A DNA stretch of 45,595 nucleotides from contig CAJNOJ010000205.1 in assembly GCA_905250025.1 (NCBI GenBank), forward strand, positions 144,292-189,886, in the 5' to 3' direction. The notes under the pieces were generated by a model. That model had not been told where the DNA came from. It did no database searches and worked only from the letters and a program-made list of their open reading frames with translations. This DNA is from Adineta ricciae (lineage: Eukaryota). This document shows, piece after piece, positions 1-38,832 of the stretch; within the stretch, counting starts at the first letter, position 1; each line of letters starts with the position of its first letter. The translations under genes and the position numbers were made by a program.

Positions 1-2417
1 GTACCATTGATATTGCATGGAAATATCGCTTCAGTACCATTTGGAATGTATATTTTATTGTTTGCTAAATAGGGTACAAATAAATCAGCCGTATCACAGT
101 TTCCGATAACATAAGGCACTGGAATTTTATAAAGTACGCAAGTACTGTTCATCCAAACTTCATTCCATCCACTAAAACCTCGTCGAGGTGCATAAAACCC
201 CAAACATGTATTACTTCCGAAATCACCTCGATTCATATCTGCGTAGACGTAGATTTGATGATGATCTTTCTTTGAGTGACCTAGAAAATTCTTTTTACCA
301 CCATAAACATGAAAATTATAACTGTCTTCGTAGAAACAACTGCCATCATCATGATCGATAGGCCACAGAGCATTATAATTGTTGAAAATCGTGTTATGGT
401 GAATATAACTATAGTGCTGCCAGAGCGAAGGCACGCCGGGTTGGGTCGCATCACTCAAAAACGGTTGCCGATCCCATGTGTTGATAGGTCCATGATCACT
501 CGTTTCCCGAACTGTGTTAAACATTACATTCCAACTGAGTGTATGATTTCCGTAATAACCGTCATTGATATTGATTGCTGCGCGTGGTACATTAAACATT
601 AGGTTACCAATGACAGATGCACTGCGACTAACAGCGATTAGTACCGGTGAAGATTGTTTATTGTAAATACCGGTTTCATGCATTAAATTCGACTGTATCA
701 GTGTATTTGCTGGTTGACTTCGCACGCTAAAGCCATCGATTCCATTCGTACTACCGACAAGAATGATCGCTGAGTCTGCTAACCATACGAATTCATTCAT
801 AACAATCGAAGTTGCATCGTTATAATCAATTAGCGCGATACCATTGCTGCCTAGTTGTGTAAATAAATTTCGTGTTATACTAACATCTTTCGTATTCATT
901 AGATATAGAGTACCGCCTCGATGAACAGCCCAATCGCCACCACCTGGTACCATGTATTCCCGCATGTATGTACTCGTCGTTTCTGATAGTATTAAACCTT
1001 CGAATCGTACATTATAGATTGGATCATCAATACTAATACCGCGCAAAGAAATAAGACAAGGCACTTGACTGGCAACGAAAGTGTTTGGCATCGTTTCATT
1101 GGGCATAAAGTAGAGCGTACGGCTATCTTTATCTAGGAACCATTCGTTGGGTGAATCAAGTTCTTCGAAAATATTAGCGACATAAAATGCGCCACCCCAA
1201 CTTAAACCTCGTGCTTCTTGAAATCCACCTCGACCAAACATAATCGTGTATTCTGTACTATTAACCGACCCTATCTGAAATATCCAGCTGCCCCAATATT
1301 CGCCTTGAAATGTGTGCACCAAACCAGCGGTGGATTTAGTCCAATTGCTCATATGCGGTAATGTATCTTTATTCACAGTAATGCCGCGAGTAGTAACGTA
1401 ATTATCACCACCGGGTGGTGCCGCTGTGCTCCAAAAGTTCGTAGGCGGATCGAAAACGTATGCACCACCGCCCACGCCAAGTTGAAAATTCGTAAACACC
1501 GTACCATTTCGAAACGGCACTTGTACATGTACTTCTAGACTTCTATTCGGAGTAGGCCCCCACCACTTTTGCCACTCAAAACAAAATCCAGGATTTTTAG
1601 CATATAACCCTTGAGTCGATGGATCACCATTTGGATACTTGGCAAGAATCGCACGTTTACCATCAATATATAACTCATTAAATTGCTCTAAGTCAATATA
1701 CGATGGTATTTTCGCTTTCATGATGGTACCATTAGTTGTTGTTTTTGCATGGACAGACCATTGTAACGGTAATAACGTACCACCACTTAATATGACACGT
1801 TCATCTAGGTAATTCTGTATCACAAGATTACTATCAGCACTTGTTAATTGAATCACACCCATTTGACTACTGGATGTAGTTGCATTTGCACCGAGATAGT
1901 ACGTCCCTTCACGTATAACAATGCACATCGTATTGTTTCTACCGTATGTGATACGAAACGTCCGCGTTAATAATACAGCTGTCTGAATAGTTTTCAAAGG
2001 CATTTCAAATGTTCCATTCCATCGATCGTCACCCGTTTTCCCGTTGACAAACACTGTGCGATAACAGTTATCTGCTTTCGTTTTTTCTTTATTTGCGAAT
2101 AGCGAACGACTATTGGATGATCGGTAAGTACGATAGATTGTTTCATTACATTCATCCATTTGAAATGCACTTTCACTAAGTGTTGTCCAGTTACCTTTCC
2201 AAAACGGAGGCGCGATGTACCCAGCCATCTCGATAGTGAAAGCGCGTAGTGCACAGTCGTCCTTGAGAGCAACATTTGGATTTCTGACTCGACCATATCG
2301 CGGATCAATTTTAGCTGAATACTTCGTTGTACGATGTTCAAGTGAACAGCTCACCATACTGTCTGAGCTATAAATCACAATGAGCAATATAAGTGACATA
2401 CCAGTGAATAATAGCAT
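1..2417 (-). CDS. Secreted right-handed parallel beta-helix (pectin-lyase-fold) protein. The 5' end is complete (ATG at 2417, alternative ATG at 2399) and the 3' end runs past window position 1. There are no introns.
   Basis: My own minus-strand translation is open from 2417 to position 1 (more than 800 aa) with no stop, and the upstream in-frame stop is TAG. This ORF is absent from the supplied track, presumably because it has no in-window stop. The N-terminus (MLLFTGMSLILLIVIYSSDSMVSCS) looks like a signal peptide. The body carries repeated beta-helix rungs with N-rich turns, for example ITRNLFTQLGSNGIALIDYND, VIGNLMFNVPRAAININDG and IHHNTIFNNYNALWPIDHDDGS. A continuous 2.4-kb exon is unusual here, because most other genes in the window have ~50-bp introns. 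Confidence 0.6.
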   Translation of the reverse strand, partial: MLLFTGMSLILLIVIYSSDSMVSCSLEHRTTKYSAKIDPRYGRVRNPNVALKDDCALRAFTIEMAGYIAPPFWKGNWTTLSESAFQMDECNETIYRTYRSSNSRSLFANKEKTKADNCYRTVFVNGKTGDDRWNGTFEMPLKTIQTAVLLTRTFRITYGRNNTMCIVIREGTYYLGANATTSSSQMGVIQLTSADSNLVIQNYLDERVILSGGTLLPLQWSVHAKTTTNGTIMKAKIPSYIDLEQFNELYIDGKRAILAKYPNGDPSTQGLYAKNPGFCFEWQKWWGPTPNRSLEVHVQVPFRNGTVFTNFQLGVGGGAYVFDPPTNFWSTAAPPGGDNYVTTRGITVNKDTLPHMSNWTKSTAGLVHTFQGEYWGSWIFQIGSVNSTEYTIMFGRGGFQEARGLSWGGAFYVANIFEELDSPNEWFLDKDSRTLYFMPNETMPNTFVASQVPCLISLRGISIDDPIYNVRFEGLILSETTSTYMREYMVPGGGDWAVHRGGTLYLMNTKDVSITRNLFTQLGSNGIALIDYNDATSIVMNEFVWLADSAIILVGSTNGIDGFSVRSQPANTLIQSNLMHETGIYNKQSSPVLIAVSRSASVIGNLMFNVPRAAININDGYYGNHTLSWNVMFNTVRETSDHGPINTWDRQPFLSDATQPGVPSLWQHYSYIHHNTIFNNYNALWPIDHDDGSCFYEDSYNFHVYGGKKNFLGHSKKDHHQIYVYADMNRGDFGSNTCLGFYAPRRGFSGWNEVWMNSTCVLYKIPVPYVIGNCDTADLFVPYLANNKIYIPNGTEAIFPCNING

Positions 2418-3123
2418 TCCTGCAGAATTTCTTTTGTGCTATAGAAAAAGACAACAGAACTGTATACGTATATTCTGTTTGATATTTCAATACAGAAGAC
2501 CTTGTGTCAAGTTACATAAGATAACACAGTGATAAGAATGTTTAAAAATAGTTGGATTGGGTTGTATTTACCTTAACTTCTGTTTGATCGGTGGAACAAT
2601 ACTGTTGCAATAGAATTGGATTTTCTTGTGAATTATAAGCATACATTGATTTGTCTTGGATCATCTGATCGTCAGCACTGAATATAAAAATAAAATAATA
2701 TTTTATACGATCGCATGGTTTTTTTTACATGTACCATTGAAAATTCAATCAATGGTATAAAAATGAAGCCAATTATATGACAGTCACTGTAGAAGTCGCT
2801 CTTTGTTTATTCTCTCAAGAGCACAACGTGAATAGCAACATCATATACTTTCACAAATTGCTACAAATAATCATTCAGACGCCGTTTGAAACGGTAAAAG
2901 CTGTTGCCGGCTAGAATCCTTTCAAAATATAACAACGAAGAAGAAAAGAAAAGCAAAGAATGTTGAATGAAAATTCGATGATTGACAGGCAATACATGTT
3001 TTCGTTGTCGTCATCATGTTCTTCAGCTTGATTCGTGCCATTCTCGTGAAAGTGTTGAAATTTCCCTCTTCAACAGTATGAATGATGTCACTGGGCGAAA
3101 ATGAGTTCGAAGTTCTTAAAAGT

Positions 3124-3131
3124 TATATAAG
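3124..3131 (+). promoter_or_regulatory. TATA-like box (TATATAAG) about 75 bp upstream of the ATG at 3203
   Basis: The match is by sequence only. Confidence 0.2.
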
Positions 3132-3202
3132 ATGCAAAATAGAATGGGAATAAGTCCCTATTCGTTTGATAAAAGTTTTCATATCGAATATAATCAATAA
3201 TT

Positions 3203-3625
3203 ATGGAATTACATTTATCACAAGTTTTATCCAACTGGAATGAAGTTGAAGTTCGTACTGTTCCAAATGTCATGTATCAAGTGGTTTGTCCAACGAACAA
3301 TACTGACGAAGGTATTGAATATCGCTTTCATTGGTTTCTTGATTGTTCTGAGACATATATTCATAACCACCGGTATGCTTTTGACACGTACTGCTTACAA
3401 GGTGAATATGAAGAGCGCTTGTGGGAAATAAGTGACGATCGTTCCGGGACTTTCACGTATACGTTTCCGAGAACTTCGGGAAACAAATTCGGTACATGCA
3501 TTCCATACCAGGAGTGCTACGGACTGTTAAACAGAACCACCATTTTCCAGGCAATACATTACATCTCGAACCCAATCAGTATCATTCGATCGTTCCGATT
3601 GGCGGAGCAAATAGCAAGATATTAA
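3203..3625 (+). CDS. Hypothetical Cys/Trp-rich protein. The ORF track gives 140 aa, and the 3' part may continue by splicing into the 3496-3777 frame.
   Basis: The ORF starts at an ATG with a TATA-like element upstream and has protein-like composition (MELHLSQVLSNWNEVEVRTVPNVMYQVVCPTNNTDEGIEYRFHWFLDCSETYIHNHRYAFDTYCLQGEYEERLWEISDDRSGTFTYTFPRTSGNKFGTCIPYQECYGLLNRTTIFQAIHYISNPISIIRSFRLAEQIARY). An overlapping ORF at 3496-3777 ends in a plausible C-terminus (...SSSDSIQAPTDEIRPATAEERQLIHEKLISLS). I could not place a splice junction confidently. Confidence 0.25.
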   Translation: MELHLSQVLSNWNEVEVRTVPNVMYQVVCPTNNTDEGIEYRFHWFLDCSETYIHNHRYAFDTYCLQGEYEERLWEISDDRSGTFTYTFPRTSGNKFGTCIPYQECYGLLNRTTIFQAIHYISNPISIIRSFRLAEQIARY

Positions 3626-4670
3626 CATTCGTTGCTAGACGACTTTGCTCAACAGCTGCAGAAACGACATTCGTACTAAGCTCATCAGATAGCATTCAAG
3701 CACCGACCGACGAGATTCGACCAGCAACGGCAGAAGAGCGGCAACTGATTCATGAGAAGCTTATAAGTTTGTCATAGACAGCACTTACATTTTCTAAGAT
3801 TGTAAACTATTTTTTTAAAAATTCATGTCCTAGAAAGAAATAAAATTGTCAACACATTTCACATTTTTATTAGATGTTTTTCTCTGAACATACAACATAC
3901 ACTGTTATCTTCAGTACTCCGCCCACGGGCGAAAGATTAACCGTCACTTACAAATACGAAGTAAGTTTTTCGAGCGAAATGCATAATTTAGACAAAGACG
4001 AACAAATCGCCGTCGTATAGTTGACTGATTTATGTAACAAAATACTTCTGATGAGTTGCGTTCAGAACTATTTCGATGATATCCACCACGATCTTCAATC
4101 ATTCCACAGATGAGAAACATTGAATATCATACTAAGCTCATCAGTTCGAAGCTGTTGGCGACCTAATTATAGAACTGATTTGGATGAGAATTAGAGTTGT
4201 TTATTTAAACGTCATTCGTCTCCACACCCTCACCCCCATCGACTCTACATATGTCGCTTTTTCTTTACGTAGTGTATGCATGGATGAAATTAATTGAATT
4301 CTACTTACAAGACTATCGCAAGTAAACGAATAGAGACACACTGATTGATTCTTTAATGTATTTATTTTTTTCAGCACAAAAAGAACACTTGCTCGTGCAT
4401 TTCGCTTATACGTAAAAACAAGAGAAATGTAGAAAAGAAATATTCTTTTGTATACACAAGTGACTGTCTTGTTTCGGTTTGTTTTCTCTTCCACCCTTTA
4501 TTCATATAACTAAAAGCGTAAATTTTTCCCATGTAAAATAAATTCATACTTTTGCTATTTAAAATGATTAAACCTCCAGAATCGAATTTGGAACAACCGA
4601 AGATTGTACATCGCTCACAGCAAAGTATCAAATCAAAGTTTGTCCTTCTTATTCTCATGCTATGAATTAG

Positions 4671-5326
4671 TTTTGCTCTTTTGGTTTTTGTCAAAGGTCT
4701 CAATGCTCAGTTTCGCGACTGATTTGTACTCAATTATTAATTCTATTGGCACTGCTTGTTGTAGCAGCGATTACCATTCCAATTATAGTTCTTATACTTG
4801 GTAAATTTAAAAGAAAAATGTCGAGTTATTCCATTTCAAAGTGTTTTTCTTTTAGATAATCGTTCAGCACGTAAATATTTCATTAAAATATTTTTCTTTC
4901 GAACATGAATTCTTTTTCTAAGCATGTTCATCAACTTATTCTGATACTTTTACCAATGGTGTGACACCAACAGCAGCTCAATGTGCAAATTGGCAACAAT
5001 TTAAAACAAGTTTAACTTGTTCATCTTATTCGAAAATGCGTTTTTATGGTTCAAAAGACCTTGTTGGTGTTACTGTATCTGATCCATCTGTTGTCACTGC
5101 ACTGGTAGTTGCTTTAAAGTATAACACAACAGTGACTACACTATCAAATGGGGTTTACTGGAGAGTTGGCGTATGTTCAAGTGGTTTTGAGATATCTGCA
5201 AATGGATTTTGTGCATGTGCAGCAAATTATGCATTGAGACCATGTCACAGTAATTCAGATTGGGGAGGAATTGGCAGTCCAACATGTAGTTCGGCAACAC
5301 AAACATTATCACTTTATTTTGAATAA
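4671..5326 (+). CDS. Putative small secreted cysteine-rich protein in a partial 3-exon model: about 4671-4800, 4856-4870 and 4923-5326. The start codon is unresolved.
   Basis: Two 52-55 bp GT-AG introns (gtaaat...ttttag and gtaaat...tctaag) join a hydrophobic leader frame (LICTQLLILLALLVVAAITIPIIVLIL) to the long ORF 4961-5326 (TPTAAQCANWQQFKTSLTCSSYSK...CACAANYALRPCHSNSDWGGIGSPTCSS). Codon phase across both junctions agrees with the ORF-track frame. Exon 1 has no ATG in that frame, so an upstream exon or a different 5' end is likely. Confidence 0.25.
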
Positions 5327-5847
5327 ACAAATTATGGAAGGTCTTGAGGGTGAGCGTGCAGATAGATCTGTTTGTGCATGAGACTGAGTGTATAATTGAC
5401 GATAATTAGGATATTCATACTAATACCCTCTTTGAGAAAAACGTTTGTTTAATAAAATAAAAAAGGTGCCGTATAACCATTTCAAATTATTTCAGTTGAA
5501 AATATCAATTGAATAGAAAATGAGACTTTAGTATGGAATGACAACAAGTAACGCTCGCTGAGTCCTTGACGGAGTAACTAGCACTAAAAAATGTTTTCTG
5601 TCAGCGAAATCGTTCACAAAATAACTTAAGTTGTATTACTGCATACGCGTTATAATCCTGATTTTCTCGTATCAGTTTTAATCTATGTCGTAAGAAATTC
5701 AAACAATACAGAATTTCATATTATCATAGATACTATTTAAAAGTCTTTATAATAAACTGTGTAAATAATACTCGTCGAACATGAGTCGTATAATTTCCCA
5801 TACCCTCACCCGCTCGCACATGTGTGTAATGTTTTTGTAAGATAAAA

Positions 5848-6927
5848 TTATTGTTGTTCAGAAGCAATCGAGTTCGAACAAACGATTCTGTCAAAATGAT
5901 GATTATCAGGAGAGCGATGAGTCGATGGTTTGGATGAGGTGAAAACAGTAAAACTGGATGTCCAATCGTCACGAAATTGACACGTGACAAACCAGCGTTT
6001 TTCTTCCAGCCAAAATGGATTTCGAAAAGCAGTGATCATTCTATCAAAATGATTCCAATCGCAGCAATAGCAGAAGATGCAGAATTCCAAATGAGCAAGT
6101 CGTGGTAATTTCAGCCGGAGAAAGTATTCCCACTGAGATAGACGATGTATAAATTCGAATGGCTTGCCCGAACTCGTAAGATCCAGATGAGTTAACGAGG
6201 ACAACAGAGAAAGACAGTATTCCAGTTTATCCATTGTGATTTTGAGGTCGTTTAGTGTAAGAGAATGTAATTGCGTGTAGGATTTCGTGAGGAATGACTC
6301 GTTGATTTCGACTTTCCAACAATTGTTCATGATGAGAGCATGTAAATTAGGCGAATGGTCTAGAATGGAGCAAAATTGCTCGAACGTGCACGTTCCAATC
6401 GAAATACTTGTAGCTCGACACGAAAACGGCCATAGAAATCGTTCGACGTTGTTCAGATTAAAGTTCAAAATGCATTGGCGAAGACTGGATTGTAAGAGAA
6501 TCATGGATACTAAATTCAATAAATCATCTACATTCTCTAAGGGATTTACATCGAGAGAGAATGTAATTAAGTTACAATTCTTTATCACATGCCGTAAAAT
6601 CAATTTGACTTCATTGATATCCACACGATGAAGAACTAATGTTTCAAGCCGTTGGAATCGATGAATGTCGATAATTACACTGTTGTTATCATCGATTTCT
6701 AATAGTAAAACATTTTCCAATGGAATAATCCGGCAGATATTTTTCATCGCAATTGAGTTAACGTGAATCTTATATCGATTATAACTTTCTGTAACAGCAA
6801 ATAGTTGCGTACAAACATGTCGAATCGATCGAACGATCGTTTTTGTATCCAGAAAATCGCAAATCCGATATAGAAGCTCCGTTGGTAAGTCGAGAAGACC
6901 AACTTTATTTTCTTTTAGAGTTGTCAT
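5848..6927 (-). CDS. F-box plus leucine-rich-repeat protein, single exon
   Basis: The ORF starts at a true ATG and has an N-terminal F-box (LLDLPTELLYRICDFLDTKTIVRSIRHVCTQLF) followed by a Leu-rich repetitive body. Confidence 0.7.
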   Translation of the reverse strand: MTTLKENKVGLLDLPTELLYRICDFLDTKTIVRSIRHVCTQLFAVTESYNRYKIHVNSIAMKNICRIIPLENVLLLEIDDNNSVIIDIHRFQRLETLVLHRVDINEVKLILRHVIKNCNLITFSLDVNPLENVDDLLNLVSMILLQSSLRQCILNFNLNNVERFLWPFSCRATSISIGTCTFEQFCSILDHSPNLHALIMNNCWKVEINESFLTKSYTQLHSLTLNDLKITMDKLEYCLSLLSSLTHLDLTSSGKPFEFIHRLSQWEYFLRLKLPRLAHLEFCIFCYCCDWNHFDRMITAFRNPFWLEEKRWFVTCQFRDDWTSSFTVFTSSKPSTHRSPDNHHFDRIVCSNSIASEQQ

Positions 6928-7088
6928 TGTTTTTCAGGAAAATTCTCAAACACGTGCTATACCCAATCGACTGTTTCTTCGTTCTGTCGAACGTTCAATT
7001 GAAATGTTGATTAAGTTTACGGATCGGCGACATCTATTCCATTTTTATTTCTATGGAAGAAAACAAATACAAAAAATTCTTTTTATAT

Positions 7089-8078
7089 CTATCTCCAATA
7101 TGTTTTGGCAACGCTACGAGTCGTCTCCCATGCTTCATCCAAGACTTGAACGACTTCATCGGGCAATGGTTCTTTCTGTAAATCTTTTAAATTCGATTCT
7201 AATTGCTGTATACTACTTGCTCCGATGACAATTCCATCGCCATCGAATACATTTAATTTCGAATGATGCAAAAGCCACCGAAATGCTGTTTCTATAAGCG
7301 TAAGATCATACTTTACCAAGATGGGTGTTATATGATCAAGAGCGCTGAGATAAGCATCATGAAAATATCGATCGCGATACATTTTCGCGGCAGTATTACC
7401 TTTGACATCAGCAAACCGACCTTCTTCGGGAACTGTCAATGTTGACTTATATCGTCCGGAAAGAATACCACCAGCTAATGGATTATAAGCAAGTATATTG
7501 ATTCTAAAGTGTCGACAACAAGGTACAAGTTCTTCTTCCAGAGCACGTGTTAACACATTGTACATAGCTTGATAAATTGTTGGTCGAACCCATTGATTAC
7601 AAATGCAAATCTGTGCAATTTTTGCCACTTCCCAAGCGGCATAATTACTCAATCCAAAGATTTTGAATTTACCTTCTTGATGGAACTTATTCACTTCTTC
7701 AAGAGTCTCTTCGAATGGCACACTTCGATCAGGTGCATGAAGATAGAATATTTCCACCGACTCTTGTCCTAATTCTCGCAGACTTGTTTCGAATAACTCC
7801 CGTAATTTCGCTGGTTTATGCATACCCGCTTCTATTGGATATACTTTTGTTGCAATGGTAAATCCACCTTCACCAAGCACACCTGTTTCTCGTGTAAAAG
7901 CTTCTTGTTTACCATCGTTATATAATCGTGCAGTGTCGAGCTCTGTGTAACCGTACGATTGAAACGTCTTGAACATCGCTCGTATCTCTTCTACAGTCGT
8001 AACTCTCGCAAGATTCGTACCAACTGGACCCAATGTTGCACATCCCAAAACGATGCGTGCACGCTTTTTGTCCGTCAT
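7089..8078 (-). CDS. Aldo-keto reductase of the AKR7 (aflatoxin-aldehyde-reductase-like) type, single exon
   Basis: The region from IVLGCATLGPVG through TELDTARLYNDGKQE and ATKV matches the AKR7 pattern LGTM.GR...E.DTA..Y.nG.SE..LG, and the length is typical for an AKR. The ORF track begins at a TTG at 8102, and the first ATG (MTDKKRARIV...) is at 8078. Confidence 0.8.
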   Translation of the reverse strand: MTDKKRARIVLGCATLGPVGTNLARVTTVEEIRAMFKTFQSYGYTELDTARLYNDGKQEAFTRETGVLGEGGFTIATKVYPIEAGMHKPAKLRELFETSLRELGQESVEIFYLHAPDRSVPFEETLEEVNKFHQEGKFKIFGLSNYAAWEVAKIAQICICNQWVRPTIYQAMYNVLTRALEEELVPCCRHFRINILAYNPLAGGILSGRYKSTLTVPEEGRFADVKGNTAAKMYRDRYFHDAYLSALDHITPILVKYDLTLIETAFRWLLHHSKLNVFDGDGIVIGASSIQQLESNLKDLQKEPLPDEVVQVLDEAWETTRSVAKTYWR

Positions 8079-28970: not shown

Positions 28971-29648
28971 ATGAAACGTGCCATTGTTTTTCTTCTTTTA
29001 TCCATTGTTTTCGTGTACATTCGTCAGGATAAAGCACAACGTAGTATAACTGCTGGACAACGAATTATTCCCGTGAATTCGCATTACGAAGGTGATATCA
29101 TTGAGTTTGTTCTAAGATCGAATGAAACTGGCCATACGCATTCGACAATTAAGCAAACGATTAAACGCGACGGGCCATGTGGAAACTTGTTATCAAATGC
29201 ACATCCATTGAAACGACCTTGTACTCCACCAATTCATTATCACCTAAAACAAGATGAAAAGTTTGATATTAAACAAGGTCGATTAGGTTACATCTTAAAT
29301 GGCATGAATGGCACGAAAGAAACGAACGAATCTTTATTTATACCCAAAAGTGCATGTCATACATTTTGGAGTGCAGGTGATGATGATTTAGTGGTATATA
29401 TAACACTTTATAATGATCATGGAATGGTACCGGGTAGAAGTGCGGATTCCTATTTTGAAAATATCAATGGTGTTCGACGGGATAGTCCAAGTCTGATAGC
29501 GACACTTCAGGTTCAAATTGGCCACGATATTTATCGATGCGATCTACCCCGACTATTTAACTCGATGTTTAGTAAACTATTCCAAATCGTAGCACTTGCT
29601 CTAGGTTATCAAATTCAATATGTTGAATATACAACACCTGTCATCTAG
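28971..29648 (+). CDS. Secreted protein of 225 aa, function unknown
   Basis: The ORF starts at an ATG with a signal peptide (MKRAIVFLLLSIVFVYI), followed by a Cys-containing mature region. Confidence 0.45.
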   Translation: MKRAIVFLLLSIVFVYIRQDKAQRSITAGQRIIPVNSHYEGDIIEFVLRSNETGHTHSTIKQTIKRDGPCGNLLSNAHPLKRPCTPPIHYHLKQDEKFDIKQGRLGYILNGMNGTKETNESLFIPKSACHTFWSAGDDDLVVYITLYNDHGMVPGRSADSYFENINGVRRDSPSLIATLQVQIGHDIYRCDLPRLFNSMFSKLFQIVALALGYQIQYVEYTTPVI

Positions 29649-29714
29649 ACCTTTTATTACAGAATGAAAGCAACTATTTTTGGTGCGAATAAATTTCTAT
29701 GAGCATGTTGTCTT

Positions 29715-30447
29715 TTATAGACCATGGACATATGTTCGACCTAGATCAGATAAACTTCCATCAGCTCGAATTAAACAGTTGGTTGAACCGAGTGCAGCAT
29801 CGAGACGACGTTGAGCTCCAAACCAGGCATAGCGTTCAACCCAGTCTAACGAATCAAGTTTTTGAACACTCTGTCGCATGAATTCATTGACTTCTGCTTG
29901 AGATACAGGTTGACTTGGATTCCATGACGTACAAGCGAATTCTGTTACCCATACAGGATGTTTATTGCCCAGCTGTTGACGAACGAGTGTGATCCAATTG
30001 ATAAAATTATCAGCACCACGACCGTACCAATGTAAAGCAATAAAATCGATCCGTCCACCGATTTGATTCAAGTCTCTGATGAATTGTTTTAACCAATTGA
30101 GTCCTTCGTTAGTCGAAGCAATAGCTGGTGAGCCAAGACGAACGCCTTGTTGTCTAAGAGGTTCAATATATTTTTTCCAAGCTAGTGCAGCATCACCAGG
30201 ACTCATGTGTGCTTGATCAGCACGTTCCGGTTCGTTGAAACCGAGCACATGCTTTGCACCTCGTGCTTGATTCACGAATAGACTGCCATCGTGACCTTTA
30301 TTCGTACTCCATAACATAGGAATAAATTCAGTACCAGCAAGATTTGTTCTATACGGTGACCAATTGTAAACCCATGAAATCTTTCCGCCACCAAAAACAC
30401 CCGGATTATCTTCTTTATTTTCCATTGGCCATGCAATACCTCGTTTT
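29715..30447 (-). CDS. PAN/apple-GH128 glucanase gene, exon 2: GH128 (Glyco_hydro_cc) catalytic domain
   Basis: The exon reads ...ISWVYNWSPYRTNLAGTEFIPMLWSTNKG...HVLGFNEPERADQAHMSPGDAALAWKKYIEPLRQ...PVWVTEFACTSWNP. NEP and TEF are the expected positions of the two catalytic Glu residues in the fungal/bacterial GH128 beta-1,3-glucanase fold. Confidence 0.7.
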
Positions 30448-30498
30448 CTTTGAAATATGAGAAGCTCACAAAGAGAAGTACTTTTTTCAAATATCTAC

Positions 30499-30842
30499 CT
30501 TGTGTTTCGATTACTTGTAGGATTTCTCGTTGCTTTGACGCCACAAACTGCAGACGAATCTGCACTATTTATAGCATTGGATTTCGAAACTGAACCGGAC
30601 TTCATCCAACAGGTTCCTCCTTGCCAATTCGTCCATGCAAAATGAGTGCATTTTGCTACTGCATCGCATTTCGGACCGCATAATTGCGGTGGACTTCGAA
30701 CATTGGTGAAATCATTTCCACGAAAATCACATCGTAAAGCCCAATTATTACCATTCCAATTGATAGTCGCTTTGGTAGCAACAAATAAATTGAGGATGAC
30801 CAAACATCCAATTGTAATAGACGATGTCGAAGCTTCTTTCAT
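30499..30842 (-). CDS. PAN/apple-GH128 glucanase gene, exon 1: signal peptide plus a PAN/apple-like Cys-rich module
   Basis: The exon starts MKEASTSSITIGCLVILNLFVATKA and continues CDFRGNDF...CGPKCDAVAKCTHFAWTNWQGGTCWMKSG...AVCG. The donor is ACAAG|GTAGAT, followed by a 51-bp intron ending at TTTCAAAG. Coordinates are set so that phase agrees with the ORF-track frames on both sides. Confidence 0.6.
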
Positions 30843-31167
30843 GCTTTCGATTTCGAATCTTAACTTTGATCAGCATTCTCTGTTAGACTACGCAATTATA
30901 TATAGAAGGTTCGTGTGGGAATCAGAAGGGATAAAAGCTTTCATCGTATCGCACCCCATGACTCAGCACGTCAGCTAAATATGTATTTCGAAAACAAAAT
31001 CCCCACATGATTCACAGCCCTAGTATTTTTATCGAGCGTGGGAATGTCGGAGGGAGAGAAACGCAAAGGATTGACATGCACAAAACAAAAAAACGTAAAA
31101 GCACCGGTGCTATTTAAATATAGCCACACATGAGTGGGACTTTTCTGCGGCAAACACTACAATTCGA

Positions 31168-33039
31168 TTAAACTTGAAAGTTAAACGTGTCTTTCTTCTG
31201 AGCAGTTTGCTGTAATTTCACTTTTCCTTCGTCAGAAAATTGACAATCATACATCCATAATACTTGTAACACTTGATTGTCTGTAATCATGCCATCGAAA
31301 TACTCAAGGCTGGCATCCGAAATTAATGCATTCGAATACAACGTTATCTCTTCGAGGGTTTGATTAAAATATCGAACGGCTTCACAGAAACCTTTCATCG
31401 ACTGATCCGTAATGAGATTCTCGTGTAAACCAAGAGCTCGAAGTGTTCTATTCGATTTTAGCATATTGGATAGATGCGCTAGACCTTGGTCGTCTATTTG
31501 GTTACCATTGAGAACCAATCTGCGCAGTGTGGAATTACGGAATGATAACGACTCCGATAACTGTTGTATCGCTTGGTCGGAGATGATGTTGTTCGAAATA
31601 CATAGTTCTGTTAATGTAGAATTCACGCCCAAAAAAGAAAACAAGCAAGAGAATGAACGTTCCGTTAACGCATTGTTTCGTAAAATAACTGATTTATATT
31701 TTAAAGTTGTGAAGTATTTATGGACGATTAAGTTTAGATCATCTTCACTAAGTTTCTCATTGTTTAAATTCAATAACGAACTTCGTTGACAGTTTTCAAT
31801 GAATTCTTCGAGTTGTGGGTTCGTGTAACCGTTCGAAGTGGCGAAGCAGAATAAGTTACTCGATAGACCAATTGGACCGTTTATTTTTAGTTCTAAATGC
31901 TTGATTTTAATAGCACGTTTTTCAAGTTCTCTTTCATGTGTAGTCAATACTTGTCGATACTGTTGATTTTCACTTTGAATCCTATCGTAATTAATCATCT
32001 GCTGCTTCAAACATTCGTTTTCTTCTTGAGATTTTTGATAGTAGCCAAGTAAAGCCCGATGTCCTTCCTTTATAGGTTGCAGCTCGTCCAACTCTTCTCG
32101 CAATTTTTGTTTTTCTTGAATGAGAACTGAAATTTGTTCTTCACCTCTCAATTGATTTGCTATTTTTTGCGTATATTCTTCAAGTTTTGTTAGTGCAGCT
32201 TGACTAGCGTCGTACTGTTCTTTCAGTGATGCATGTGCCGTTTTGATTTGTTCATATTCGCTTTCAATTGGTGTTAATCGATTGATTTCTTTACTGAGCC
32301 GGTCGATTTCGGCTAATTTTTTATCCAAATCCTCTTTCATACCTTCTATTTGCTTTGTGAGTGTTTCTTTTCCTTCATTTAGAACATTAATCTCTTGTTT
32401 TAGTGATGCATTTTCGTTTGCTCCTCGCTTGCATTGGTCAGTTAAAGTAGTTATTTGTATAACTTGCGTGTTCAATCCTTGATTTGCAACTTCAAGCTGT
32501 TTTATACGATCTTCTTGCTCTTTCGAACGATCTGCTAGTTTTCGATGATCATTCCGTAGTTGATCAAGGTCGTTTCTGTCACGAAGAAGCTCCGTTAAGA
32601 GCGCTCGGAGTTGTTCATATGGGCAAGTATGAACATGCTGATTTAATTGATCGTGTGATCCATTCCATGGACATTTGACATCTTTAGCCGGACAAGGTAC
32701 ATTTCTTTTCGGGCAGATTTCGCGCATGTGTTGCAGAAAATCTCCACGTTCAATATCTTGTTGTAAGCAATGACGGCATTGTACCGAGAGACGGCCTAGT
32801 ATTCGATGTACTAGTGCTACTTGATCTTGGATATCTTGTTGAGATAAGGGTTTTCCATTGCAATGCGTGCAGCTTGCTGCATGCTTTTCATAATTCAATT
32901 GAAGACACTGTCGACAAAAGGTTTGTCCACATCGAGAAGGGAAGTAAACTGGATCGATGAATGGATTGCTGCATAGAGAACATTCCCAATCTGGACTTAA
33001 CTCATCCAGATGCAGGTAAATAAAATCATTTGTGCCCAT
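31168..33039 (-). CDS. RING finger, TRAF-type zinc finger, long coiled coil and C-terminal RNI-type LRR protein, single exon
   Basis: A C3HC4-like RING (CSLCSNPFIDPVYFPSRCGQTFCRQCL...CTHC) and a TRAF-like zinc finger region (CRHCLQQ...HMREICPKRNVPCPAKDVKCPWNGSHDQLNQHVHTCPYE) are followed by about 250 aa of heptad-rich coiled coil and then LRRs (LTELCISNNIISDQAIQQLSESL..., LRRLVLNGNQIDDQGLAHLSNML...). The ORF track starts at a GTG at 33072, and the first ATG (MGTNDF...) is at about 33039. Confidence 0.7.
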   Translation of the reverse strand: MGTNDFIYLHLDELSPDWECSLCSNPFIDPVYFPSRCGQTFCRQCLQLNYEKHAASCTHCNGKPLSQQDIQDQVALVHRILGRLSVQCRHCLQQDIERGDFLQHMREICPKRNVPCPAKDVKCPWNGSHDQLNQHVHTCPYEQLRALLTELLRDRNDLDQLRNDHRKLADRSKEQEDRIKQLEVANQGLNTQVIQITTLTDQCKRGANENASLKQEINVLNEGKETLTKQIEGMKEDLDKKLAEIDRLSKEINRLTPIESEYEQIKTAHASLKEQYDASQAALTKLEEYTQKIANQLRGEEQISVLIQEKQKLREELDELQPIKEGHRALLGYYQKSQEENECLKQQMINYDRIQSENQQYRQVLTTHERELEKRAIKIKHLELKINGPIGLSSNLFCFATSNGYTNPQLEEFIENCQRSSLLNLNNEKLSEDDLNLIVHKYFTTLKYKSVILRNNALTERSFSCLFSFLGVNSTLTELCISNNIISDQAIQQLSESLSFRNSTLRRLVLNGNQIDDQGLAHLSNMLKSNRTLRALGLHENLITDQSMKGFCEAVRYFNQTLEEITLYSNALISDASLEYFDGMITDNQVLQVLWMYDCQFSDEGKVKLQQTAQKKDTFNFQV

Positions 33040-33463
33040 TCTTGAAAAGGAACGGAAACTTGATTTCTTCACAGTCAGATTCTACGGTGCATATGCCTTT
33101 TACACTGTTGTGAGAAGAATTGGGAAGAAAATGAAGAGTATACGTTTTACAAACGATTGTGTTGCTGTTTTCTCGTTACACAAAGAACGAAGAAAAAATG
33201 TGGTTGATTATAGTCGACAAAATACCCAGAGAAATGAAGAAAATGTAAATATGAAAATAAGAGTGTAATAAGAAAAAAGATGTTATTTAAAAGAACAAAC
33301 TCAGCCTTGATGAAGGTGTAGAAACCTATTATCAGTGTGAAGTTAGTACCAGATAGTTCGCACCAAAAAACAAAGAATTTCACGATAATATTCATCTAAG
33401 TATCCCCTTGTCGTAGTTATTCTTTATTAAATACAAAACACACATCAACAACCATTTAGCTGC

Positions 33464-36498: not shown

Positions 36499-38832
36499 TC
36501 AATAACACCCCCACCCACCCTCACCCTCACCCTCAATAAGCGCTTTGAAATGTTTCAATTCGGTCAAACGCATCACGGCTGTCTTATATTCCGGATGGTT
36601 AACATCGAATACTTCCTTGTATATCTTAACCGCCATTTCGTAGTAATGTATAGCCATTGAAATATCGCCGTTTAGCGCTAGAATGGTACCCATAGTAGAA
36701 AATGTTCGAGCAAATGTTGGATGATTTGATGGATAAACACGACGTTTGATTTCCAGAGAAAAATTACAATAGTGCAATGCTTGTTCAGTATTACCTTGAT
36801 CTGCATAATACGATGCAAGATTGCTATAGAACATCCCTAGTTCTGATTCGTCAGGAGTTTGAGCGTTTTGTATACAATTGATGGCTTTTCTTGTATATTC
36901 TATGCCTTGTTCGATATTGCCCATACTATGATACACTACACCGATATTATTGTACCTTTTAGCAATACTTATGCTCATCCCTTTTTCAAATTGTTCCTCG
37001 GTTTGTAAGCTTTTTTGTAGATAATACAACGCTAATTCGTATTCTTCTTTTTTACGATAGATAACACCAATATTGCCATAAACACCAGCCAGTGCAACAT
37101 GACTGTATATGCCATTAATGGTGTATATTCGTTCTGCTTCTTTATATTGGCGAAGTGCTTCATCATATTCGCCTTTGGCGTCATATACCCCTCCAATTTC
37201 CTGATAAGCGCAGGCAATCGGTAGTTTGTTATCGGCAAATAATCCCTGAAGAATTTCAAGATTTCTTTTGCAATATTGTAATGATTTATTGTATTGTCCT
37301 AACTTCAAATAAGCTGCACCTATGCTAGAGTATAGTCTCGCTGCCATCATATCGTTATTCAAATGGCGATGTTCCACGATTTCATGCGCATGAAAATAAT
37401 TTTTAAAGGCATCATCATAATTTCCAAACCTTTCATAAGTGTCTCCAATGCGTGTTAGAGTACGCACAAATACATTCGGACCTACTGTTGGGTATTTCAA
37501 GTGAATTTCTAATGCCGTTTTGTAAAAGCTCATTGCTCGTTCATAATCTTCTTCTTGTGCATAAATTTGTCCAATGTTGTTATAAATATGGCAACAAACT
37601 GGATGCATGGAAGAACCTTCCATTATATAACAATTTAAAGCCTTTATATAGTAGTATAGACCGCGTCGATAGTTATGCTTAACACAGTTGCAAATACCAA
37701 GAACATTGTAGATTTTCCCAGGATTCTCAGTGTACTCTTCGAGTAACATAAGCAGATATTTTTCTGCTTTGCCATACGAATACGATTCATTTAGAAGTAT
37801 AGCCAATTCAAACAGTGGATCATCACAGTCCTCCAAACGGGAGTATGAATTCTTGAGGTAATCATTCAATTTCACCCTGCTCTCATCAGTTGCTGTAAGC
37901 TGTATTTTCCAAACATTGTTTTCCATTTGTTTAACAGACTGTACTACGAATAGCATGCCCATAGAGAGTAAGACTTCATTTTCGTCCGACATATGGCTTA
38001 CGTTTGAGATATCAGCTAGTGGTTTGTGCGATCGATTCACATCGATTGTGATTTCAAAAAGTACTGACTCGATTTCTGGTCGATTGGACCCATCGCCAGC
38101 AAATATGAGTGCAACATCTTGACGCTTTGTTGTAGACAAGAAAGATTTTAGCGAGATGATGGTATTTTTACTAGCTTTTAGATTATTCAACTCGCTGGCT
38201 TCCATTTGTTGACCGCGGTAAACTGTAATAACATTCGAGTTTTCCGTTTTGAATTTATTATGTAAATCACTGAGTGCATCATAAAGATCGATTACAAAAC
38301 TTCGAAACTTGAATATGATATCAATATCTTCAGTTTGAAGCGCTTTGTTTATTACTTTATGAATGAAACAATCTTGAGTGTACCACGAAATAGCCGATTG
38401 AGGTTGATATGTCTTTTCAAACCGTTCAATTTTTCTTAATTCACTGGGATCATCATGATATTGGACCCTGCATATTGTTACCATATCTTGTCTTGATCTA
38501 TCGTTTTGAGGTAGACGCCGTAGAGCTTCCAATAACATTTGATTCCACTGATAAGTTGCACAATGTGAACTCAGATCGTGGCTAGACGTAGTTTTCATTG
38601 AGAACAGCATCGGTTCCACTACAGGCATCTGCAACAACTCTATATCGCTTTTCACACGATCACATAGTTGTTTATTTAATTCATAGACTCTGTCTCGAAT
38701 CTTTGGAAAATGATGTGTCCAATTCAATTGTTCCGAATCCATATTTGAGATTTCTTTCTCAAAGCAAATATAAATGTATATCAGCTGCGGAATCTCATGA
38801 ATGAGTGGCACCAACAATTCAGCTTCACTCAA
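36499..38832 (-). CDS. Arginine-specific ADP-ribosyltransferase domain (R-S-ExE) fused to tetratricopeptide (kinesin-light-chain-type TPR) repeats
   Basis: The ART core has R in VITVYRGQQM, S-T-T in LKSFLSTTKRQDVAL and ExE in SDENEVLLSMG. More than 10 TPR units follow, for example AMSFYKTALEIHLKYPTVGPNVFVRTLTRIGDTYERFGNYDDAF. The C-terminal tail is EGEGEGGWGCY*. The ORF track begins at a TTG, and the first ATG within this ORF (MDSEQLNW...) is at about 38742. The true 5' end may lie in the next feature. Confidence 0.75.
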   Translation of the reverse strand: MSEAELLVPLIHEIPQLIYIYICFEKEISNMDSEQLNWTHHFPKIRDRVYELNKQLCDRVKSDIELLQMPVVEPMLFSMKTTSSHDLSSHCATYQWNQMLLEALRRLPQNDRSRQDMVTICRVQYHDDPSELRKIERFEKTYQPQSAISWYTQDCFIHKVINKALQTEDIDIIFKFRSFVIDLYDALSDLHNKFKTENSNVITVYRGQQMEASELNNLKASKNTIISLKSFLSTTKRQDVALIFAGDGSNRPEIESVLFEITIDVNRSHKPLADISNVSHMSDENEVLLSMGMLFVVQSVKQMENNVWKIQLTATDESRVKLNDYLKNSYSRLEDCDDPLFELAILLNESYSYGKAEKYLLMLLEEYTENPGKIYNVLGICNCVKHNYRRGLYYYIKALNCYIMEGSSMHPVCCHIYNNIGQIYAQEEDYERAMSFYKTALEIHLKYPTVGPNVFVRTLTRIGDTYERFGNYDDAFKNYFHAHEIVEHRHLNNDMMAARLYSSIGAAYLKLGQYNKSLQYCKRNLEILQGLFADNKLPIACAYQEIGGVYDAKGEYDEALRQYKEAERIYTINGIYSHVALAGVYGNIGVIYRKKEEYELALYYLQKSLQTEEQFEKGMSISIAKRYNNIGVVYHSMGNIEQGIEYTRKAINCIQNAQTPDESELGMFYSNLASYYADQGNTEQALHYCNFSLEIKRRVYPSNHPTFARTFSTMGTILALNGDISMAIHYYEMAVKIYKEVFDVNHPEYKTAVMRLTELKHFKALIEGEGEGGWGCY

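Follow-up and report, generated by a model that had tools for sequence, protein, structure and literature searches.

A GH128 glycoside hydrolase of probable fungal origin, joined through a 51-nt intron to a signal-peptide-like leader and a PAN/apple module in the bdelloid rotifer Adineta ricciae

Bdelloid rotifers are textbook animals that keep gaining foreign genes. Here we describe a gene in a 45,595-nt stretch of the Adineta ricciae genome (assembly GCA_905250025.1, contig CAJNOJ010000205.1, positions 144,292 to 189,886 of the forward strand; hereafter the window), which encodes, on the minus strand, a signal-peptide-like leader, a PAN/apple module and a complete catalytic domain of glycoside hydrolase family 128 (GH128). 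The two exons are separated by a 51-nt intron (Table 1), and the spliced coding sequence of 1077 nt comprises 358 codons and a stop; without splicing, the frame closes after residue 115. The spliced product is identical at every residue to the A. ricciae proteins CAF1132640.1 and CAF1287912.1 (UniRef100_A0A815CPF8), whose database name is [quoted passage not shown] On contig CAJNOR010001379.1 the annotated gene is 1128 nt long, which after subtraction of the coding sequence leaves an intron of 51 nt, and the window is 100% identical to that contig across the 7128 bases compared. The window gene is an already annotated bdelloid rotifer gene, for which the annotators chose the same intron as a first-pass annotation of the window, which had proposed that a canonical GT-AG intron of 51 bp keeps the frame open; the junction (30499/30447) falls exactly where it had been placed. 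A. ricciae also carries a second copy, P0001, which shares 96% identity with the window protein.

The two open reading frames (ORFs) could in principle be separate genes or products, namely a 115-residue secreted PAN protein that ends at the TAG within the intron and a leaderless GH128 protein translated from a downstream ATG. Retention of the intron would produce precisely such a PAN protein with its signal peptide, free-standing proteins of this kind, ~106–111 residues long, are known in Macrostomum and Rotaria, and GH128 paralogues that have no leader exist. Translation from the first ATG of exon 2 (Met122), however, would cut off the conserved KRGIAW first strand, which is part of the Pfam domain, and the 51 nt of the intron leave no space for a promoter. 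Furthermore, four species have retained the intron at the same position and in the same phase although its length varies from 51 to 366 nt, and the annotated models of four genomes join both exons. We therefore regard two independent products as very improbable.

The GH128 module lies wholly within exon 2. Residues 118–354 match PF11790 (Glyco_hydro_cc) from position 1 to position 237 of the 237-position model (E = 1.3e-67; 228.3 bits against a cut-off of 21), and the sequence matches all solved GH128 chains in the PDB, with a best E value of 1e-31. The AlphaFold (AF2) model of the protein has a predicted local distance difference test score (pLDDT) of 89.9 overall, with block means of 83–98, mostly above 90, in the barrel. 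In Foldseek searches, this model superposes on GH128 crystal structures from subgroups I–VII with E values of 9e-20 to 1e-13 and target-normalised template modelling (TM) scores of 0.72–0.85. The best fold match is the fungal subgroup III exo-β-1,3-glucanase of Blastomyces (E = 9e-20, target-normalised TM 0.84).

The catalytic machinery appears intact. In an alignment of 55 GH128 sequences, 17 of them from rotifers and 38 fungal or presumed fungal, Glu187 of the NEP motif and Glu284 of the TEF motif are invariant in all 55, and the NEP, HWY, TEF and RYAWF motifs of the catalytic center and the −1 subsite are essentially invariant; the HxY motif is represented in the window protein by His254 and Tyr256. 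Glu284 aligns with the glutamate of AmGH128_I that was replaced in the crystal structures 6ufl (E199Q) and 6uas (E199A). Glu187 lies within an FNEP motif common to all aligned GH128 chains in the PDB and, on the basis of this conserved motif, would correspond to Glu102 of AmGH128_I, for which an E102A mutant is named in PDB titles. The full-length PF11790 match and the invariance of both glutamates bear out the first-pass annotation, which had recognized in exon 2 a complete GH128 core with NEP and TEF as the catalytic glutamate motifs. Because these motifs and glutamates are conserved, we predict an active enzyme and not a GH128 that only binds, as in subgroup VII. We also considered the KR dipeptide ahead of the barrel as a convertase site and set it aside, as KRG forms the conserved first barrel strand in fungal GH128 proteins as well.

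The window protein thus shares with the CAZy family GH128 (PF11790; crystal structures 6UAQ–6UBD, subgroups I–VII) the (β/α)8 fold over the full length of the domain, the NEP acid/base, the TE(F/Y/W) nucleophile and the HxY motif. Ranked by closeness to the window protein, the subgroups run from III (fungal) through VI, V, II and IV to I. The window protein differs from the solved GH128 proteins in its animal host, its N-terminal PAN/apple module, the spliceosomal intron at its domain boundary and a sequence identity to them of 33% or less.

Exon 1 begins with a leader whose first residues are polar, followed by a hydrophobic core (residues 9–22; Kyte–Doolittle 11-mer maximum 2.75) and by T-K-A ahead of the conserved mature INWNG sequence. 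Equivalent leaders are present in the orthologues, and the protein is likely to be secreted. The module that follows scores only 20.3–23.1 bits when the window copy is searched alone, below the Pfam cut-off of 27. Multi-copy relatives of the module score far above that cut-off, all 14 of 14 family units match PAN_4 and PAN_1 (best E = 1.7e-8), and six cysteines are invariant in the 14 aligned units. An AF2 model of the module, built from 105 sequences, reaches a pLDDT of 95.2 and displays a strand-strand-helix-strand-strand-strand order. In Foldseek, the top ~30 matches to this model are all PAN/apple domains, with query-normalised TM scores of up to 0.72; the apple domains of factor XI and prekallikrein match at 0.69–0.72, and further matches include the Sarcocystis lectin SML-2, the apple domains of Toxoplasma MIC4, a PAN module from Eimeria and the HGF N domain. 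The agreement of the 14 family units with PAN_4 and PAN_1 and of the predicted fold with apple/PAN structures indicates that the PAN/apple identity of the module is correct. Of the earlier reading of exon 1 as a signal peptide plus a PAN/apple module, then, the PAN part is upheld by family profiles and fold, and the leader is signal-peptide-like by hydropathy.

The module has its fold and cysteine framework in common with PAN/apple lectin modules such as those of SML-2, TgMIC4, oomycete CBEL, the HGF N domain and factor XI. The subfamily to which it belongs differs from these in an N-terminal I-x-W-N-G-x-x-W-A extension, in its CTHF-W/GGTCWMK core and in being repeatedly joined to glycoside hydrolases. 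Both modules of the window protein are under purifying selection, with ratios of nonsynonymous to synonymous substitution (dN/dS) of 0.11–0.25 for PAN and 0.13–0.19 for GH128. The linker between them evolves almost freely (dN/dS 0.7–1.7), and in this region the confidence of the model falls to a block mean pLDDT of 69.

Table 1. Features of the PAN–GH128 gene in window coordinates
Feature	Position	Strand	Basis or remark
TATA-like element (TATATATAA), putative core promoter	30897..30905	-	~55-63 nt upstream of ATG; sequence inspection, function inferred
Exon 1, 344 nt: start codon, signal-peptide-like leader, PAN/apple module, linker	30499..30842	-	Stops 2 nt into codon 115; identical to annotated exon 1
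Signal-peptide-like leader, residues 1-25 (MKEASTSS, then ITIGCLVILNLFVA, then TKA, followed by T)	30768..30842	-	Hydropathy
PAN/apple module, residues 26-102 (77 residues, 6 conserved Cys; INWNGNNWA...CDF...CTHF.W...GGTCWMK...VCGV)	30537..30767	-	Profile, model, Foldseek
Linker, residues 103-115 (KATRNPTSNRNTR), low-complexity, fast-evolving	30499..30536	-	dN/dS, pLDDT
Phase-2 spliceosomal intron, 51 nt (GTAGAT...TCAAAG)	30448..30498	-	GT...AG; in-frame TAG at 5' end (donor)
Exon 2, 733 nt including TAA at 29715-29717; entire GH128 domain	29715..30447	-	Splicing, Pfam
GH128/Glyco_hydro_cc domain, residues 118-354, (β/α)8 barrel	29730..30440	-	PF11790, PDB matches, AF2 model
GAA codon of Glu187 (NEP), predicted catalytic acid/base	30231..30233	-	Alignment
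GAA codon of Glu284 (TEF), predicted catalytic nucleophile	29940..29942	-	Alignment
AATAAA polyadenylation-signal-like hexamer	29653..29658	-	57-62 nt past stop codon; sequence inspection, function inferred

We also note an upstream ORF of 42 codons (30748–30876, minus strand), out of frame with the GH128 gene, which begins at an ATG 34 nt ahead of the GH128 start codon and extends over that codon; its inclusion in the mRNA would depend on where transcription starts.

Several lines of evidence point to a fungal source for the catalytic domain. Once rotifer proteins and rotifer-like metagenome ORFs are set aside, the GH128 domain is most similar to proteins of Sordariomycetes (Thozetella, Lasiosphaeria, Bombardia and Cercophora) at 45–49% identity, followed by Agaricomycetes, and no non-rotifer animal appears among the best 120 matches. 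The alien index is at least 60 (criterion used in the bdelloid literature, >45), a lower bound derived from these best 120 matches (best non-metazoan E value 4.9e-66; 120th match 9.1e-40). In a neighbour-joining tree of the domain, all bdelloid sequences form one clade with a bootstrap of 100, nested among fungal sequences. The composition of the gene is host-like, with a G+C content (GC) of 0.42 overall and 0.28 at third codon positions (GC3), and its neighbors on the same contig include G-protein-coupled receptor (GPCR), F-box, TRAF-zinc-finger/leucine-rich-repeat, DDX60-like and ART-TPR genes. Orthologues are found in A. vaga, where the gene lies on a 13.9-Mb chromosome near an ART-TPR gene, in A. 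steineri and in several Rotaria species, so that at least five bdelloid assemblies carry the gene. The earlier proposal of a horizontally acquired enzyme is corroborated by the alien index, the nesting of the bdelloid clade within fungi, the linkage to animal genes and the host-like codon use.

Two other explanations for this fungal affinity bear consideration. Fungal contamination or mis-assembly, for which solely the affinity of the catalytic domain itself speaks, is refuted by linkage and orthology: animal genes stand on both sides of the gene on the same contig, the GC and GC3 values are host-like, the micro-intron is of bdelloid size and the orthologues recur in at least five bdelloid assemblies, one of them chromosome-level. 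We give this explanation essentially no weight. Alternatively, GH128 could be an ancient animal gene that descended vertically and disappeared from almost every other animal. Its presence in both Adineta and Rotaria shows that the gene is old among bdelloids, and such a history would also suit its stable synteny, its host-like codon use and its possession of a spliceosomal intron. A vertical origin fits poorly, however, with the lack of any non-rotifer animal among the best 120 matches, with a rotifer clade that is nested among fungal sequences at 45–49% identity to Sordariomycetes, and with intronless, leaderless paralogues that mirror the fungal form of the gene. The large-scale acquisition of foreign carbohydrate-active enzymes (CAZymes) for which bdelloids are known (PMC11258130) likewise counts against vertical descent, which we judge highly unlikely.

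Among the neighboring genes, an ADP-ribosyltransferase (ART) plus TPR-repeat gene lies near the GH128 gene at 36499–38832 (minus strand). Genes of this ART/TPR type are likewise found next to the orthologues of A. vaga and R. sordida (locus L001, 10493–11116, and locus L005, 9503–11327), which reflects either conserved synteny or a very expanded family. At 31168–33072 (minus strand) an intronless ORF of 634 residues encodes leucine-rich repeats and a coiled coil besides a zinc finger of the TRAF type, and the window also carries three rhodopsin-type GPCR ORFs, two F-box ORFs and one DDX60 PIN-like ORF. On the other side, a 225-residue ORF with a hydrophobic N-terminal leader (28971–29648, plus strand), annotated in A. 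ricciae, runs toward the GH128 gene, the stop codons of the two being 66 bp apart; Pfam and PDB searches with this ORF gave no match.

The structure of the orthologues bears on how the leader and PAN module came to be joined to the enzyme. The orthologous genes each contain a single phase-2 GT-AG intron, of 60 nt in A. vaga, 366 nt in A. steineri and 274 nt in R. sordida. With the 51-nt intron of the window gene, the phase-2 intron is thus found 1–3 codons before the conserved KRGIAWP sequence in four species from two genera. Because Adineta and Rotaria share this position, the join is older than the split between them. The sister clade of the bdelloid GH128 proteins (bootstrap 85) includes, in the two Adineta species sampled, intronless ORFs of 240 and 243 residues. 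These paralogues (P0048 and P0029) begin MSKKRGIAWP and MSAKRGIAWP, have no leader, and have no PAN module within 5 kb. The closest Sordariales proteins are likewise leaderless and intronless and begin MA(P)SKRGLCWP. Since both the bare paralogues and the Sordariales proteins start at the junction, the intron sits at the ancestral start codon. Together with the conserved position of the intron, this supports the earlier suggestion that an exon for secretion and binding was added to an acquired enzyme.

The two intronless, leaderless paralogues are encoded at 5001–5723 of locus L006 (A. ricciae) and 5001–5732 of locus L007 (A. steineri), and their products would be cytosolic, like their Sordariales relatives, if the annotation is right. 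In Rotaria, paralogues of the PAN-less clade (P0034, P0038 and P0054) carry C-terminal DUF7910/fascin/FRG1-like repeats, which represent a second and different accretion of modules. Thaumatin-like genes were considered as conserved neighbors of the PAN-less paralogues and dropped, as we found only faint Pfam flags and one weak tblastn match (E = 0.001).

The mode of addition had been described in the first-pass annotation as exon shuffling. In its strict sense, this requires introns of the same phase on both sides of the shuffled unit, and the gene does not conform, because the PAN module is encoded by a first exon with a single flanking phase-2 intron and because the two PAN copies of A. steineri lie inside one exon with no intron between them. 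In Macrostomum, the same PAN module is fused to GH45 without an intron. Capture of an upstream exon, or gene fusion, fits better than classical exon shuffling. We envisage that an ancestor of Adineta and Rotaria would have taken up a fungal, ascomycete-like GH128 as a bare, intronless and leaderless ORF, that this gene would then have duplicated, and that one copy would subsequently have captured an upstream exon encoding the signal peptide and PAN module, spliced through a phase-2 intron at the old start codon.

In a profile search of 1.84 billion proteins, the PAN module matched 2471 cluster representatives, of which 141 had E values of 1e-30 or better. In animals, the subfamily occurs in Rotaria and the flatworm Macrostomum lignano as free-standing proteins made of a signal peptide and PAN, on GH45 in Macrostomum (as a single ORF) and in the fly Bradysia, in a tardigrade astacin, in Hydra receptor kinases and in a thaumatin–PAN protein of Rotaria magnacalcarata; in metagenomic eukaryotes it is joined to GH16 and GH5. 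Among fungi, GH6 and GH7 cellulases of the chytrids Nowakowskiella sp. (P0248) and Chytriomyces spp. (P0286) each carry two or three copies that are 44–52% identical to the window module, which is unusually high for modules common to fungi and animals. By comparison, the window module is 55–75% identical to flatworm and rotifer modules and 47–50% identical to those of Hydra and the tardigrade. Fusions of PAN with GH128 also exist as single ORFs in unidentified eukaryotes from metagenome and EukProt data (P0302, P0402 and P0486). Of these, P0302 combines two PAN modules, a myxobacterial-type GH128 that is 35% identical to P0001 and a transmembrane anchor, and P0402 combines a Tos1 cell-wall domain, a PAN module and GH128. 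Judged from these sequences, the PAN–GH128 pairing arose more than once. A tree of PAN modules, intended to distinguish a native from a foreign origin, came out unresolved because the domain is too short.

These distributions raise an alternative to the capture of an upstream exon within bdelloids, in which a complete signal peptide–PAN–GH128 gene was imported ready-made from a fungal donor, for instance a chytrid-like one, or from another microbial eukaryote, and the PAN-less paralogues later lost their N terminus. The presence of the same subfamily, at 44–52% identity, on the cellulases of Nowakowskiella and Chytriomyces and the existence of single-ORF PAN–GH128 fusions are both compatible with such an import. 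Yet the best 120 matches to the rotifer catalytic domain, its closest relatives, include no fungal PAN–GH128 protein, and P0302, with its myxobacterial-type GH128 at 35% identity to P0001, represents an independent fusion. In addition, a bare architecture that begins precisely at the intron position is found both in the most similar fungal proteins and in the rotifer sister clade, and the window PAN module is closer to flatworm and other rotifer modules (55–75%) than to chytrid ones. We consider a ready-made import improbable, though less so than vertical descent or two separate products, and prefer the capture of an upstream exon by an acquired enzyme.

Two further loci illustrate the company that the PAN subfamily keeps. 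On Macrostomum lignano contig NIVC01000434.1 (L011, 313–1284 and 4001–4321), a single ORF encodes a signal peptide, a PAN module that is 61% identical to the window module, a Gly linker and a fungal-type GH45, and a free-standing gene for a signal peptide and PAN is located 2.7 kb away. Within 8 kb, a rotifer-like metagenome contig (L010; ERZ26165376 ctg354328, 1–7400) combines part of a GH19 chitinase, one ORF that is chitin-binding and another for a signal peptide and PAN module, together with thaumatin exons; these may form a cluster of cell-wall-directed genes. On that contig the PAN ORF lies upstream of the thaumatin exons, and analysis of the contig yielded no gene model.

The repeated fusion of this PAN subfamily to glycoside hydrolases, the presence of carbohydrate-binding modules (CBMs) on bacterial GH128 proteins and the known lectin activity of PAN/apple domains suggest that carbohydrate binding is most probably the function of the module. 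Several PAN/apple domains bind carbohydrates (PMC3532174; also PDB titles). Bacterial GH128 proteins commonly carry CBM6, CBM32-like/F5/8-type-C or ricin modules, in agreement with a published study (PMC10956234). The CBM6E-bearing protein of Saccharophagus degradans (PMC10956234; PDB 8J3X) and myxobacterial GH128–F5/8-type-C proteins resemble the window protein in combining a catalytic barrel with a non-catalytic module that binds or, in the window protein, would bind. They differ in that the modules of those GH128 proteins are CBM6, CBM32 or ricin domains at the C terminus, whereas that of the window protein is a PAN/apple domain at the N terminus. By analogy with such modules, PAN would keep the enzyme attached to targets rich in glucan, for example the walls of fungi, yeasts or algae, where it could serve in feeding, in antifungal defence or in both.

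Other foreign glycoside hydrolases in animals offer points of comparison. In a bdelloid infection study, foreign GH16 and GH64 glucanases were induced by a fungal pathogen, with cell-wall attack discussed as one possibility (Nowell et al. 2024, PMC11258130). Like the window gene, these encode foreign β-glucan hydrolases integrated in bdelloid genomes, and they have been proposed to target fungal cell walls; they are of bacterial origin and up-regulated upon fungal infection, whereas the window GH128 appears to be of fungal origin. Neither the bdelloid infection papers themselves nor 200 of the 206 supplementary files of the published paper contain the terms GH128, PF11790, Glyco_hydro_cc, Asl1 or PAN_4, and we therefore favor neither feeding nor defence. 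The GH45 and GH5 enzymes of beetles and nematodes (PMC6509783) are likewise microbial glycoside hydrolases that were domesticated in animals, with eukaryotic gene features and secretion; they differ from the window gene in enzyme family, host phylum and the type of module added.

Taken together, we think it probable that the window contains a functional nuclear gene of A. ricciae for a secreted enzyme with two modules (PAN/apple and GH128 retaining β-1,3-glucanase, preceded by a signal peptide and separated by a flexible linker); its catalytic part would derive from a fungus, the upstream exon would have been gained later, and the PAN module would serve for binding. Several points weigh against parts of this interpretation. 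The splicing rests on annotation, reading frame and conservation. The tree is a neighbour-joining tree without a bacterial outgroup, in which the link of the bdelloid sequences to the Sordariomycete group as sister has a bootstrap of only 52, and a weaker GH128 in another animal may lie beyond the best 120 matches. GH128 subgroups differ in their mode of action (endo, exo or binding only), and the best identity to a PDB chain, ~32–33%, is too low to tell endo from exo. The 44–52% identity of the PAN module to the modules of chytrid cellulases leaves room for other origins of the module and even for the import of a finished fusion. Finally, a role in antifungal defence is a tentative proposal, and feeding and defence are both possible.

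The gene had been annotated before, and foreign CAZymes with acquired introns are well documented in bdelloids. A literature search that combined GH128 with rotifers, bdelloids or horizontal transfer in animals found no paper describing GH128 in animals, and the family extends the bdelloid repertoire of enzymes directed at fungal walls. To our knowledge, the turning of a leaderless microbial ORF into a secreted animal protein is seldom visible. Here both stages stand in one genome, with a bare, intronless, fungal-like paralogue as the starting form beside a copy joined through an intron to a signal peptide and binding module. The pair makes a clean before-and-after case of the domestication of a foreign gene, though an ordinary one for bdelloids.

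Far more tentatively, the INWNG-type PAN module could represent an unrecognised family of carbohydrate-binding modules for β-glucan or cell-wall polysaccharides, common to chytrids and small invertebrates, with 44–61% identity between kingdoms and phyla. In this speculative proposal, the module would have been recruited repeatedly, by GH5, GH6, GH7, GH16 and GH45, by two unrelated types of GH128 and by thaumatin, would serve bdelloids as the standard adaptor for leaderless foreign enzymes, and may itself have moved between fungi and animals. Many of the glycoside hydrolases that recruited the module are themselves foreign. As such an adaptor, the PAN module would make a leaderless foreign enzyme both secreted and anchored to its target. 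The idea that this PAN subfamily may act as a carbohydrate-binding module across fungi and invertebrates is directly testable.

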